This document shows positions 11,701 to 61,668 of a DNA stretch of 64,000 nt, one piece after another. The DNA lies in the NCBI GenBank assembly GCA_951406725.2, contig OX597818.1, positions 146,568,001-146,632,000 of the forward strand, written 5' to 3'. Source of the DNA: Octopus vulgaris (Eukaryota). Each line of letters starts with the position of its first letter. Position 1 is the first letter of the stretch. The notes below the pieces were generated by a model, which was not told where the DNA came from, did no database searches, and saw only the letters and a list, made by a program, of their open reading frames with translations. The translations under genes were made by a program, and so were the position numbers.

Positions 11701-11782
11701 CTGTACTGAAGAGGAGAATGATGGAGTGGAAATGTGGTTTTTATATTTTTCACATCTATCTAACTCCGAAACGCGTCTACAG
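11701..11782 (+). ncRNA. Type I hammerhead ribozyme (intact core)
   Basis: Stem I CTGTA/TACAG. Core CTGAAGA (11706-11712). Stem II GGAG/CTCC with a long extended hairpin. GAAA (11768-11771). Palindromic stem III A-CGCG-T. GUC cleavage triplet, cut after 11777. Confidence 0.85.
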
Positions 11783-12098
11783 TTAATCAAATCCGGGTGG
11801 ATTCGTTATTTTTTCTCTTTGGGTTGTTGAGTATTGTTGTTTGGGAGATTTTCTTATGGTAGAGAAATAGCTAGTTTTAACTGCTATTTCTAAATTTCGG
11901 TATGTGGTGAGGCAAATTTTTTGTTGAACACTAATTATAATTATACGCATAATTATAAAAAGTTTTGTGTATGTATTTAAATACATAAGAGATGGCCATA
12001 ATGGGACATCTGATTTACTAGAAAGAGCAGTTAAACTCCAAACCACTAATAGTTGTAATTCTGAAAGGGAAAGAGAAATAAAAACGTTTACCCTTTCT

Positions 12099-12187
12099 TT
12101 TCTGGACTATGCATAGTTTCGGCAATCTTTTGTAAATAAAATAAAATTATTTTAATTTACAATTGGCGTTGCCATCTTCAGCAGGAA
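12099..12187 (-). ncRNA. Type I hammerhead ribozyme (intact core, one extra U after A9)
   Basis: Minus strand reads TTCCTG-CTGAAGA-T-GGCAA...TTGTAAAT...ATTTACAA...TTGCC-GAAA-CTATGCATAG-TC-CAGAAA. Stem III is the 12-nt palindrome ACTATGCATAGT, the triplet is GUC, and stem I has one mismatch. Confidence 0.8.
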
Positions 12188-12372
12188 GCCAAGGCTAACA
12201 TATTGGCACGAGGCGATAAGGACCATGCCTCGAGTCTATATGCTATAACTTTTCAAAATCCACCACGCTCGTGCGATTTTTCAGCAGTATATATAACTGC
12301 CGATTTTATTTCAAAATTAGCCAAAAAATCCTTTTATCATTAATTAATAAATTTTAGGGTAGCAAAAAAAAC

Positions 12373-12553
12373 TCTAGAAAAATTCTCCGCTACCAGTGGT
12401 CTAGCGGGAAGGAAAAAATAGTCAATAGACTATATAATATACATTTAAATACATAAGAGATGGTAGCGGAGAATTTTTCTAGAATTTTTCTCCGCTACCA
12501 TTCTAGCAGAACTAGACGTCTAGTTCTGATGACGTCTAGTTCTGCTAGAATGG
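12373..12553. repeat. Cluster of nested perfect inverted repeats
   Basis: 23-bp IR 12373-12395/12461-12483, 14-bp IR 12460-12473/12488-12501, 23-bp IR 12498-12520/12531-12553, and an internal 22-bp palindrome CAGAACTAGACGTCTAGTTCTG (12507-12528). Confidence 0.9.
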
Positions 12554-12574
12554 ACAGAATACAAACAGGGGACA

Positions 12575-12935
12575 GTCATTAGTCAGAATATTGATGACGT
12601 CCTTTTCTGCTTGACTAGTCACCTAACAAGTACAGACAGGGGGCAGATCTAATGTAGCTATAAGTCGTGATTGGGCAGAATCTGGATGACGTCCCGTTCT
12701 GCTTGACTAACGAAGCGACTGGTCAAAACAGGAAACAAACAAGAGGCAGTTATAATGCAGCGATTGGTCAAAATGATGATGACGTCCCGTTCGGCTTGAC
12801 TAAAGCCACCTAACGAAACGATTGGTCAAAACATTGATGACGTCACGCTGCGCTGGACTGACCACCTAACAGGCATTATAAAACCGAGCACTTCACAAGA
12901 CCCACTAGAACCACCCAGCGAACATCCACCATGGG
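12575..12935 (+). promoter_or_regulatory. Candidate Pol II promoter: 4x [ATT(G/A)G-N12-TGACGTC], TATA box, Kozak ATG
   Basis: ATTAG/ATTGG at 12578, 12670, 12763 and 12821, each separated by exactly 12 nt from TGACGTC (12595, 12687, 12780, 12838; the last is a full TGACGTCA CRE). TATAAAA at 12877-12883 and CCACCATGG with the ATG at 12931. Confidence 0.6.
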
Positions 12936-13211
12936 TCACCACAATTGCTTAAGGTAAAAATGAATTCCTCGCTCTTTCGGAAACATCAATCTTCTGTATT
13001 GACTGCTTTCCACCACTTTGATCTGTTTTTTGTATTGAATACGTATCGCCACCGTGGGCCACTGCATCGAACACTTTGAACATATAGCATGAATGAACTT
13101 ACTTCAAACTATATATCAACTATACATGAACTCTAAGATGTCTGACTCCGTTGTGTATTATAAATGAATTTCTTGTGTTTGACGGCATGAGCTGTCTTTT
13201 TTTATATATAA

Positions 13212-58060: not shown

Positions 58061-58544
58061 GTCATTTACTTTTAATCTGCATGTTTGATACAATCACCTG
58101 CCGGGGCACACCCAGCGCCCTAGGGCAAGTGAAGGTTAAGAGTTGTTGAAATATAGCTGAAAGCTTGGGGAGGGGAAGTAGAGAAATATCTCCATGTAAT
58201 ACAAACACAAACATTTACATTGATAGGGTTTTTCTAAGGATGTGGGCAGTACTTGTTAGCACAATCTTTTGGATTTCCTTGAGACATGGTTTTCCAGGGA
58301 TATTGTCTAGGTGTTTCTGACATCCCTTTTTTATCATACCTAGGGCACCTACAATAACAGGAACAGTTTTTGTTTTAAGATTCCACATCCTCTGTATTTC
58401 GATTTCCAGGTCCTTATATTTACTAAGTTTGTCAAATTCCTTGACAGATACATTTTTATCAGTGGGGACGCTTACTTCTATTAGTCTGCAGGTATTTTCT
58501 TCCCTGTCTTTAACAATTATGTCTGGTCGATTAGCCTTGATCGA
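58061..58544 (-). mobile_element. 5'-truncated Dong/R4-like LINE inserted within (TAA)n
   Basis: Uninterrupted frame 58544-58215 with no ATG, so absent from the track: SIKANRPDIIVKDREENTCRLIEVSVPTDKNVSVKEFDKLSKYKDLEIEIQRMWNLKTKTVPVIVGALGMIKKG...TAHILRKTLSM*. (TTA)n lies on both sides. Confidence 0.9.
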
Positions 58545-59574
58545 TTATTATTATTATTATTATTATTATTATTATTATTATTATTATTATTATCATAATT
58601 ATTATTATTATCATTATTATGTTTTTTAATATTATTATTGTCGTCATCATCAATTAATTAATAAATCAAATTAATGTATTTATGCATATAAATATGTTTA
58701 TAATGAAGACATCTTATTTGTAATATGTAAGTAATATTCAATTACTAATATAATGATGCATTTTACATTAGCTACAAGAATTTGCATTAGAACGATTCAA
58801 TATATTCTGAATTAATTCACTAAAAAATTCATTTTCCAACTTCAACATTATTACATAGATTAAGATGACAAGACATAAAGATATATATATAGATATATAT
58901 ATATATATATATATATATTAGAAGAAATGAGGTAATTAAAAGATCGGATGGTTCATATTTACAGATATTTATTTATATATTACATTTTTTACATATATAT
59001 ATATCATATCATTCAGATCATTAGCGCTATATATATAGATAGATAGATAGGTAGATATATATATATTCATATATCATATTCATACACACACACACACACA
59101 TATATATATATATATATACATGCAAATATATACAAATACAACTATATACACATGTACATATACTTATACATAGATGTATACAACCAAAATATACACATAG
59201 AGGCACAAACATATATATATATATATACATTTACACACATACATATACGTACATATATATATATTTAGACATACATACACATATTTGCACACATACATAT
59301 ATATGCATATATATATATATATGTATGTGTGTGTGTGTGTGTGCACGTACACATATACATATATATACACAAACACATACATATGCATAACGACATATAT
59401 ATAGTATCAGATATAAATACAAACAATATATATCCATGTATACAAATACATATATATATATATATATATATATATATATATACATATACATATATACAAA
59501 TATACGATCATACATATGCACACATATAACTGGATACATACGAGTACAAATATATACACACTTAGTAAAATTTT

Positions 59575-60930
59575 CTAAACACATTTAAAATAGTTTGTAC
59601 AATATAGAACACTCTCACATTTTTCATTAAGTAATTTCTTCTTAGATGTTAATATCTGATATAATTCCTCTACACAAAAGTTGCATCGAGCATCATTAAT
59701 TATTGTACGCTAAAGCATAACTAAGTATTTTCAAATTTATGTCGTATAATTTCTTACTATCCTTCAATTTCCAAATTAGTTTACCCAGACTAGTACTATT
59801 AAACCTATCTCTATTCCGAAAGATGTACTCATGGTTTGCGATCCATTTATTAACAAAATTTTCCGTTACCTCCATGTAAAAATAATTTTTCCCTTCCGAA
59901 TCAACCCTATATCTATATGTAATATTGTTCTGTAAACAAAAATTAGTAAAATATTTATCCTTATATCTACAATCACAATTTCTAGCTAGATCATTCTCTG
60001 TAATAGTATTATTATTTCTATTATTGTAAAAGTTGTCTAATCTTTTATTATTAAAGGAAGGGATAATTCTAAACGAATTTTTAGATACTGAAAAACCTAT
60101 TTTAATCCTTTTATTGTTAATTATTTTATTATATTTATGTTCTTTATTAAAGTGCTTAGATATAGATCTGTAAATAAGCTTGACCAAATTTGTTTTTATT
60201 TGTCGTGCGTAAGGAATGATAAACCAAATATAATTATCTTTATTATAATTGACATCATTAGCTTATCTGGGTTGGCATATGGCATGTACTTATTATCCTT
60301 AGACTTAAATCTATTTATATATCTAGTTACTACACTTGTTCTTATTAATATTATTACTATTGTTAATCATATCATTACTACTTACGAATGAACTGATTAC
60401 ATTTCCACTATTAGATCCATTCACTTCGTTGTGAACCAATTTCCATTATAATAATAATATTTATTGCCGTCCCCATTCTTATTACAATATGCTACTCTAT
60501 TCCGGTATCCTGCCTTTTTAAGGGCATCATTATAATATTCCGCATTATTATTAACGATTTTCTCATCAGAGGATACATAAGAAACACGACTCGAAATATT
60601 AGTAACCAAAGATCTTGTGATCGCTTTAGAATGGTTACTATGAAAGTTCATATATTTTAAATTATTGTTGGGTTAATGATACGAACTGTATAGGCCAGTA
60701 ACAATGTTCAGATTAAAATCCAAGTAATTAACTGAATCATGTTCATTTTCTATAAACCAAATCTTTTTTTTTTTTAATTATGGAATTGTTTCATATATAG
60801 GTTTCTTTTTCTGTTGTATTGACTATTAATCAAAAATAGTGCCTCATCTCTACATAGTCAACCTTTAATGTCTGAAAATTCATTATGGAAATAATATAGT
60901 ATGTATATATCTACTAAGTTAGTAACCTGG
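59575..60930 (-). mobile_element. 5'-truncated Penelope-like element, Neptune-like (RT C-terminus + GIY-YIG endonuclease), pseudogenised
   Basis: LCRDEAL (decayed YRDDGL), YMNFHSNH...SS.E...YYNDALKKAGY, KHFNKEHKYNKIINNKRIKIGFS, NCDCR...CLQNNITY...YMEVTENF...NH...F...STSLGKLIWKLKD. Confidence 0.85.
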
Positions 60931-61055
60931 AGTTTTTAATGATTTTTTATGTTATATTATATTCATAGTACATTACGTTATATTATAATATAAATAAATT
61001 ATTGGATTGTCAATTGAATCTCTCTATTTAATTTATTGTTTATATCTATAGGAAT

Positions 61056-61119
61056 ATTCCTCTGATGAGACGAATGGGACCCTTAATAGGTTCCTAACGT
61101 CGAAATTGCAATAGGGAAT
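61056..61119 (+). ncRNA. Type I hammerhead ribozyme (intact)
   Basis: ATTCCT-CTGATGA-GACG-(GGGACC..GGTTCC hairpin)-CGTC-GAAA-TTGCAA-TA-GGGAAT. Stem III ATTGCAAT is palindromic and the triplet is AUA. Confidence 0.85.
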
Positions 61120-61604
61120 TAACCATTTATTTTTAAGTTGTGGATTCTATATGTCATGTCGCCCGCAGACCGCTTTTTCCTGAGGAGAAATAATATGAGT
61201 GATAATAGTAGCTTTATAGTGGTTTTGACTTCTATTTGTAAATATGCAAGGGTTTTTTGAAACCCTCTTAATTATAACTGTGAATTGTTCATAATTATAA
61301 ACATTCTTCTGTGTATTTTACGATAACTTGTTTGGCTATTGATATATTCATAACTAATTATTAATTGTTTATGATATATCCTCCGTAGTGCATTATTGCA
61401 TTACTTTTTAATTATTTAATTTTCCCAACTAGTATCTGGTGGTTTGCAGTGACTCGAATATACCATCTTTTCTCATAAAGGCCGTGCATGACATTTGAAT
61501 TCAAAACTTAAATGTGTAGATAGAGGTTGACACATCATTCTAGCCAGTCGGGATTCCTGTAATCCCCAAGGTAAGGTCTTGTATTGATTTCTATCTATAG
61601 GAAT

Positions 61605-61668
61605 ATTCCCCTGATGAAACGAATGGGACCCTTAATAGGTTTCTAACGTCGAAATGGCAATCGGAAAT
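61605..61668 (+). ncRNA. Second hammerhead copy, partly degenerate
   Basis: ATTCCC-CTGATGA-AACG...CGTC-GAAA-TGGCAA-TC-GGAAAT. The stem II closing pair, stem III and stem I each carry one mismatch. Confidence 0.65.

Follow-up and report, generated by a model that had tools for sequence, protein, structure and literature searches.

The DNA considered here is a 64,000-nucleotide stretch of the Octopus vulgaris genome (assembly GCA_951406725.2, contig OX597818.1, positions 146,568,001 to 146,632,000; hereafter the window), in which seven hammerhead ribozyme motifs, called m1 to m7 in order of position (Table 1), were predicted from the letters alone. The question raised by this locus is what kind of element carries these motifs and how it spreads. 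Our preferred answer, to which we assign a probability of about 0.62, is that the motifs are hammerhead folds in short, high-copy, non-coding repeats, namely non-autonomous retroelements mobilised by Penelope-like elements (PLEs), of the kind described as non-LTR (long terminal repeat) retrozymes or as derivatives of pseudo-LTRs (pLTRs). The words described at the seven sites are all present at the expected places and on the expected strands; the original prediction was real but overstated.

The folds were scored with a descriptor (core CUGANGA/GAAA/UH, stem I of 4 bp, stem II of 4 bp, palindromic stem III) that counts defects, and 200 block-wise dinucleotide shuffles of the window served as null model. 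The type I hammerhead core with three helices and an open stem I is complete in m1 and m6, while m2 (stem I, 3 bp followed by a bulge) and m4 (stem II) have one helix defect each, m7 has three defects and m5 four. Requiring an intact core, we found four motifs with no or one defect in the window versus a mean of 0.01 in the shuffles; at three and four defects, the shuffles contain on average 0.42 and 0.75 motifs per window. Two further motifs of the window reach the level of three to four defects (36133 and 17034, both minus strand) and are regarded as chance motifs. As isolated folds m5 and m7 are at chance level too, so they are credible only through their context. A separate descriptor with stems of at least 4/3/2 bp yielded 2 motifs versus 0.045 in 200 shuffles, and at its loosest setting 4 versus 0.22. 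Thus, the seven type I hammerheads claimed are two intact ones (m1, m6), two with a single defect (m2, m4), two decayed ones (m5, m7) and a doubtful one (m3), and the excess over shuffled sequence belongs to the four best motifs and does not extend to m3, m5 and m7.

The scores bear directly on the possibility that AT-rich repetitive DNA has produced the motifs by chance. There is no enrichment of the core words by themselves (6 matches versus a mean of 4.2), three motifs do not rise above chance as isolated folds, and Rfam at its gathering threshold returns nothing; four motifs with at most one defect versus 0.01 expected, six combinations of core and downstream box versus none in shuffles, and the multi-copy conservation described below speak against it. 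As a general explanation chance is hardly tenable: it is refuted for m1, m2, m4 and m6 and plausible only for m3.

That these ribozymes would be missed by annotation was borne out, since the Rfam search of the whole window gave 0 matches at the gathering threshold. At E<=10 it gave 250 matches, and among the 150 listed nearly all are microsatellite look-alikes and none is a hammerhead. Local searches with Rfam Hammerhead_1, a model with a short loop 2, matched m6 (24.2 bits, E 0.0027) and m7 (22.4 bits, E 0.011) below the gathering score of 34 and did not match m1, m2, m4 or m5. Indeed, stem II is usually long, as had been noted: domain II measures 55 nt in m1, 54 in m2, 64 in m4, 29 in m5 and 33 in both m6 and m7, and 17 nt in m3. 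The sequence of this domain is unrelated between families, which suggests that it is likely tolerated cargo, and the six hammerheads could not be aligned together by MAFFT/RNAalifold. The descriptors reported for PLEs in PMC8557442 (Craig et al., 2021) used spacers of 7-17 nt and set aside "half cores" of 35-50 nt. Since a long domain II lies outside both the Rfam threshold and the short-spacer descriptors of PLE surveys, published hammerhead counts may be low.

The palindrome of stem III, which was expected in every family, is perfect in m1, m2, m3, m4 and m6 and broken in m5 and m7. Computed for the five perfect palindromes, the free energy of helix III is +0.4 to +6.0 kcal/mol as an intramolecular hairpin and -4.6 to -15.9 kcal/mol as a self-duplex. 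By this calculation helix III is stable only between two molecules, which corresponds to the double-hammerhead design of PLEs (PMC4209133) and agrees with the dimer-type design originally proposed. The same computation weakens the idea that the motifs are ribozymes maintained by the host to cut intron-containing pre-mRNA, in which a single motif would have to act with an unstable monomer helix III. Two motifs are intact, and motifs lie on both strands so that some would be sense to any overlapping transcript; on the other side, five of the seven copies are damaged or doubtful, and published PLE hammerheads are reported to cleave poorly or to need protein (PMC4209133; PMC11167929). Pfam searches of 150 of the 215 listed frames of at least 60 codons, together with 6 longer frames, found no convincing host exon and yielded only mariner, one LINE (long interspersed nuclear element) zinc-finger and one sub-threshold DUF4052 match. 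Because no host gene was found, cutting of pre-mRNA is unsupported, and we regard host maintenance as highly improbable.

The evidence that joins the motifs lies downstream of them. Downstream of m1, m2 and m4 stands an exact copy of a 17-nt box, TTTRRCTGCTMTTTCTA, which has no other exact match in the window. Copies with two mismatches follow m5, m6 and m7, and another such copy lies at 38544. For the six motifs the box stands 70-111 nt past the predicted cleavage position; the boxes of m5 and m6/m7 are inexact, yet they lie at the right distance, and m5 is rescued solely by its box. In six of the seven cases an intact core precedes the box on its own strand, an arrangement found 0 times in 200 shuffles. 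When whole tails were compared, the pairs m1-m4, m2-m5, m5-m6 and m5-m7 beat all of 500 shuffles, m1-m6 and m1-m7 were equalled by 1 and 6 of 500, respectively, and m6 and m7 are copies of each other. Profiles built with one family left out recovered m1, m2 and m4 as the top non-training matches (E 0.024, 0.0078 and 0.14). Upstream, the flanks are unrelated between motifs except for m6/m7. The view that there are about six unrelated families has to be abandoned in so far as six motifs share the box, and the statement that flanks are not homologous outside the 61-kb pair is correct for the upstream side and wrong for the downstream tails. The shared tail likely ties the supposedly unrelated families together and might serve as a protein-binding and initiation signal. 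A search for exact copies of its pattern in metagenome, prokaryote-genome and viral collections gave 0 matches. Two additional box-like sites (38544, minus strand; 33364, plus strand) have no hammerhead upstream, so the box predicted no new ribozymes. The possibility that the tail is a twister was discarded after visual inspection and because three local Rfam searches found neither twister nor another second ribozyme in it at E<=10.

A shared 3' tail under unrelated 5' parts is a pattern of LINEs and the short interspersed nuclear elements (SINEs) that depend on them. SINE-like hammerhead carriers, mobilised by a LINE that recognises the tail as in the Schistosoma hammerhead SINE-like repeats, would explain this pattern and also a tail depth far above that of the hammerhead with different sequences in front of it (see below). 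We nevertheless judge this explanation improbable, since tandem, tail-to-head and inverted arrangements together with a palindromic stem III are PLE traits, three local searches found no match to tRNA or another small-RNA family in the elements, and the sole reverse transcriptase (RT) remnant that adjoins a motif is that of a PLE.

Repetitiveness and variation were studied in contigs of four runs aligned to 11450-13340 at 80% likeness, of which two DNA runs with different organism labels contributed 4264 and 2382. In one DNA run, the summed contig depth, which is no copy number and shows only that regions are high-copy, was 60 in the flank bin, 13,000-29,000 over m1, 9,000-17,000 over m2, 174,000-187,000 over the m1 tail and 287,000 over m3. 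The families of m1, m2 and m3 are all high-copy, and by the run labels two species share this repetitiveness. The depth of the m1 tail is about 6-30 times that over m1 itself, and at 11875 the loose ends of the contigs diverge, the tail being preceded by different sequences. Among the 40 variant rows listed, out of 198, none falls on a core or palindrome base of m1 or m2. Majority changes in m1 extend stem I (11700 T>A), turn a G-U pair of domain II into G-C (11744) or keep H17 legal (11777 C>A); in the hairpin of the m1 tail, changes at 11911 and 11924 replace two G-U pairs by Watson-Crick ones, and in the m2 tail those at 12014 and 12016 increase the likeness to m4. Together with the jump in depth over the tail, these tail changes support a common tail independently of the box. 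Moreover, four contigs from two runs rejoin about 12430-12450 to about 11975-11990 with 12-33 extra letters, which implies that tail-to-head copies of the ~475-bp unit 2 exist elsewhere. Multi-copy non-coding units with a type I hammerhead are thus represented by the m1 and m2 families in two DNA runs and by the m6/m7 duplicate in the window. Taken whole, the units fold well (z -4.9 and -4.6). No pile-up of contig ends points to cleavage after H17, though contigs cannot display such ends. Pieces of the elements also occur in two runs presumed to be RNA, which is no evidence on expression either way.

Elements 1 and 2 stand tail-to-tail on opposite strands, and the AT-rich palindrome at 11927-11995 is their junction, which looks as if one had inserted into the terminal hairpin of the other. 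A fragment of a SINE-like repeat (11530-11580) abuts element 1. Elements 2 and 3 are separated (12461-12553) by an inverted copy of 12358-12395 and a self-inverted stretch, from which a 15-nt word recurs at 29863-29877, about 230 nt upstream of m5 (E 0.046, weak).

At the 61-kb locus such elements lie next to a PLE remnant. Units A and B form a 549-bp partial tandem of one intact and one decayed motif whose predicted cleavage sites are 549 nt apart, and the copy in unit B is 88.6% identical to unit A over 387 bp. It is this identity, together with the sub-threshold Rfam Hammerhead_1 match, by which m7 is accepted as a hammerhead. Head-to-head with the tandem, on the opposite strand and with the 5'-truncated ends 107 bp apart, lies the remnant of a Penelope-like open reading frame (ORF) of the Hydra clade, which comprises the C-terminal half of the RT, the thumb, a CxC linker and a GIY-YIG endonuclease, in this order. 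Profile positions 252-631 are covered by four frameshifted pieces (i-E 1.6e-31 and 2.4e-22), and this is the only such remnant that the profile search found in the window. HMMER found 960 relatives (E<=0.001) of the minus-strand frame 59699-60262; this endonuclease frame gave no match in word-indexed protein searches and is not recognised by Pfam. Full-length relatives have an RT followed by a C-terminal GIY-YIG domain, with a CxCx5C linker, no CCHH and CxxC/CxH near the end. The remnant retains the domain order and CxC, and the third cysteine and the GIY/YIG words are decayed. Microsatellites lie on both sides of remnant and tandem (59584-61965), an arrangement that, by analogy, resembles the inverted 5' segments of PLE insertions; inverted 5'-truncated arrangements and (TA)n targeting are described for PLEs in PMC8557442. 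The PLE insertion traits in the window include 5' truncation, a partial tandem and an inverted segment, and the m4 and m7 tails end at (TA)n.

The same locus gives weight to an explanation that needs no separate life cycle, according to which the motifs are 5'-truncated 3' ends (solo pLTRs) of related autonomous Penelope-like families with ORFs outside the window. Most PLE insertions are 5'-truncated and most PLE hammerheads solo (PMC4209133), and PLEs commonly show what is seen at 61 kb, a partial tandem together with an inverted ORF remnant. Upstream of the motifs, the non-coding sequence of 150-265 nt would fit a 3' untranslated region, given that in 33 Hydra-clade loci the hammerhead starts 74-534 nt past the ORF match. 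Two findings tell against it: within the window no ORF remnant lies upstream of any motif on the same strand (Hydra-type queries and Pfam), and unit 2 follows itself tail-to-head after ~475 bp in other copies, which leaves no room for an ORF. On balance, we consider truncated autonomous elements rather unlikely, and non-autonomous elements mobilised by PLEs remain the preferred reading.

For such non-autonomous elements, a tandem or read-through transcript would bring two motifs together, and their palindromes would pair into one long helix III, forming a double hammerhead. If successive motifs were cleaved, the product would be an RNA of unit length, about 470-550 nt, and it may circularise. 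The conserved tail might then be bound by an RT/GIY-YIG protein of Penelope type, which would nick DNA that is rich in AT and begin reverse transcription close to the tail. Insertions made in this way would be 5'-truncated, tandem or inverted and would gather at (TA)n and next to older copies. By comparison with published systems (PMC4209133; PMC7229834; PMC11167929), reverse transcription primed by a PLE protein at AT-rich nicks would start in a stem-loop that follows the hammerhead. In the study PMC11167929, cleavage by the hammerhead required the presence of protein, and the hammerhead was dispensable for insertion in vitro. In a recent preprint, one of nine genomic dimers cleaved (bioRxiv 10.64898/2026.07.22.740005; Li, Clavereau & Pollet, 2026). 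Cleavage would accordingly be dimer-dependent and possibly assisted by protein (PMC4209133; PMC7229834; PMC11167929), and in view of the protein-dependent cleavage and the single active dimer most genomic copies are likely dead or slow.

Much of this has precedents. The spread of dimer-type hammerheads through animal genomes by PLEs and retrozymes is established, which makes the core observation an ordinary one; earlier publications also cover the palindromic stem III, cleavage as dimers and large complements of many families. Hammerhead motifs number more than 6000 in 16 families in a coral (PMC7229834; Cervera & de la Pena, 2020), and about 5000 in mussel, 126,247 in axolotl and about 9000 in Xenopus (PMC7229834; PMC4209133). 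Metazoan non-LTR retrozymes likewise carry a type I hammerhead, are non-coding and low in GC with a unit length of a few hundred bp, form many families in one genome, occur as monomers or short tandems and are found together with PLEs (PMC7229834; bioRxiv 10.64898/2026.07.22.740005), and the preprint treats retrozymes as pLTR derivatives. The elements described here differ in their domain II of 29-64 nt, in units of 470-550 bp and in a tail box common to several families. PLE pLTR hammerheads (PMC4209133; Cervera & de la Pena, 2014) are also of type I with a palindromic helix III, an extra base at 9.1 (here in m2), mostly solo occurrence, heterogeneous families and predicted dimer cleavage; their published helix II has 6-8 bp and short loops, in contrast to the long branched or bulged arm seen here. 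Domain II length alone has a precedent, since a spike-moss PLE-X is listed with 52 nt.

The Hydra clade of PLEs with a C-terminal endonuclease (PMC8557442) shares RW[KR], DK[TS], CxCx5C and the absence of CCHH with the ORF remnant and its full-length relatives, which likewise sit at (TA)-rich DNA; the remnant is a diverged, AT-rich, broken copy. In 79 metagenome loci of this clade (from the best 80 of 356 confirmed), our descriptor, which allowed a domain II of up to 90 nt, found 62 sense hammerheads in 51 loci with domains of 10-30 nt; m1, m2, m4, m6 and m7 have 33-64 nt versus this maximum of 30 and are followed by the box, which Hydra hammerheads lack. The short stem III loops of the 62 matches are partly required by the descriptor, and 26 Hydra rows of the published table show such loops independently. 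The hammerhead of Hydra-1_Obim from Octopus bimaculoides is unlike all seven motifs in sequence. Seven of the metagenome loci (L058, L017, L029, L002, L032, L065 and L073) have a second, different hammerhead near their own one, and in L058 (10-330) two antisense copies 281 bp apart lie over the pLTR hammerhead, as if a small retrozyme had entered a PLE. An origin from Naiad elements was rejected: of 10 short motifs compared with the supplement of PMC8557442, 8 were unmatched and 2 occurred only in unrelated Naiad consensi (line breaks can hide matches).

What appears to be new here is the combination of a long domain II with a tail common to families whose hammerheads are unrelated. Cephalopods are not named in the available retrozyme texts (PMC7229834; bioRxiv 10.64898/2026.07.22.740005), and the known octopus PLEs include Hydra-1_Obim and 31 recently active Penelope-like families in an annotation paper whose available text does not mention ribozymes. 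In the openly accessible literature we found no account of cephalopod hammerheads that combine a long domain II with a shared tail; Lunse et al. (2017) and the supplement of PMC7229834 may bear on this. We tentatively raise the possibility of an undescribed Penelope-mobilised retrozyme superfamily, likely of the octopod lineage, in which domain II is long and diverges freely and one structured 3' tail acts as the RT-binding and initiation signal. The partnership between PLEs and non-autonomous RNAs has been proposed from co-occurrence and phylogeny, and the shared tail is a concrete candidate for the cis signal that directs the mobilisation of such RNAs by a PLE protein. If the superfamily exists, the tail would define a cis signal used in trans by PLE proteins, standard descriptors would miss these hammerheads, and a density of one motif per 10-20 kb would rank this ribozyme complement with the densest known. 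Four to six credible hammerheads per 64 kb are dense, yet their grouping in 3-4 clusters, which insertion of elements next to one another would produce, makes it unsafe to extrapolate this density to the whole genome.

Several observations weigh against PLE-mobilised non-autonomous elements. As to the folds, the majority change 11758 A>C breaks a distal pair of domain II in m1 unless a variant row outside those listed compensates, and no more than two of the seven element segments surpass local controls in folding: of the 300-nt pieces, those from m1 (-4.4) and from the first part of the 61-kb unit (-2.76) are the only ones at the extreme of 44 such controls. As to the tail, the significance of the box is overstated because the box was defined after looking at the same motifs; in the other 8 of 15 tail pairs 17-150 of 500 shuffles were as good, the profiles found m5 weakly (E 8) and missed m6/m7, so that tail homology is uneven, and RNAalifold gave a single 7-bp consensus hairpin on a poor alignment. 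The link to Hydra-type PLEs is indirect: the 79 loci gave two weak box matches, none convincing, blastn of the elements against these loci found nothing beyond (TA)n, the 3' end of the ORF remnant has neither hammerhead nor box, and its position beside the tandem could reflect two independent insertions into one AT-rich site. Finally, the unit of 470-550 bp exceeds the 150-450 bp quoted for classical retrozymes, and long arrays were not seen in this window.

The motif m3 belongs to an element different from that of the other six motifs. This element 3 is young and very high-copy and resembles a pLTR with internal promoter and intron, as judged from what we take to be CCAAT/CRE-like words in ~92-bp repeats, a TATA-like word near 12877 and a possible splice donor at 12952, all recognised by eye. 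Stem I of m3 is weak (3 of 6 pairs), no shared box lies downstream, and contigs that span m3 differ from the window at 3 of ~400 and 1 of 234 letters; given this near-identity, the odd core and weak stem I are likely the state of the family and not decay. A U3-A8 core variant has been described for Schistosoma (PMC4209133). In the score band of m3 about 0.19 motifs are found per shuffled window (cumulative means 0.27 versus 0.08), and for this reason m3 stays doubtful. Splicing as a way to give m3 a better stem I was rejected, as the two nearest acceptor-like sites fall within the motif.

Table 1. Features of the 64,000-nucleotide window, with positions counted from its first letter.
Feature	Position	Strand	Remarks
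Mariner (Mos1-type) transposase remnants, n=2	4664-5559, 43413-44256	+	Pfam HTH_48, Transposase_1
SINE-like repeat	7360-63890, many places		One repeat, ~15-20 copies
m1	11701-11782	+	Intact type I hammerhead fold; stem I 5 bp, CUGAAGA, domain II 55 nt, ACGCGU
m1 predicted cleavage position	11777	+	
Element 1, 3' tail	11838-11962	+	Box 11876-11892, hairpin 11911-11925, AT-rich terminal hairpin
Element 2	11975-12463	-	Unit ~470-475 bp, tail-to-tail with element 1; box 12019-12035
Element 2, bounding 21-bp direct repeat	11975-11995 / 12443-12463		
m2	12099-12187	-	Type I hammerhead fold; CUGAAGA plus extra U at 9.1, domain II 54 nt; stem III 12-nt palindrome ACUAUGCAUAGU; stem I short or bulged
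m2 predicted cleavage position	12105	-	
Element 3	12527-13340	+	Separate young, very high-copy element; ends at (TA)n; contains m3
m3	13212-13256	+	Doubtful hammerhead-like motif; core UUGAUAA (U3-A8), domain II 17 nt, ACAUGU
GC-richer stretch	22271-24555		Weak zf-RVT match at 22477-22770 (-)
Element 4, 3' tail	28825-28930	-	Exact box 28883-28899; ends at (TA)n
m4	29002-29094	-	Type I hammerhead fold; stem I 5 bp, core at 29089-29083, domain II 64 nt with damaged base, palindrome ACACGUGU; predicted cleavage position 29007
m5 and tail	29380-29638	-	Decayed hammerhead 29583-29638; box 29482-29498 (2 mismatches)
Minimal-hammerhead-like fold	43160-43196	-	Stem I 4 bp, 13-nt domain II, ACGU palindrome, A6-to-U core change
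Hydra-clade Penelope-like ORF remnant	59584-60926	-	5'-truncated, frameshifted; followed by microsatellite
Unit A of partial tandem	61034-61418	+	5'-truncated 385-bp copy; box 61224-61240
m6	61056-61119	+	Intact hammerhead; domain II 33 nt, AUUGCAAU; predicted cleavage position 61113
Unit B of partial tandem	61419-61965	+	~164 nt further 5' sequence and 385-bp copy of unit A; ends at (TA)n
m7	61605-61668	+	Decayed hammerhead in unit B; box 61772-61788

The window as a whole is microsatellite-rich animal DNA of ~36% GC, in which the GC-richer stretch (22271-24555) is likely a decayed LINE. The fold at 43160-43196, overlooked in the original prediction, sits in a 155-bp element (43070-43226, minus strand) between two (TA)n arrays; this element has neither a shared box nor a second copy within the window. 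Some copies of the SINE-like repeat are arranged in short tandems (7411-7771, 62825-63890).

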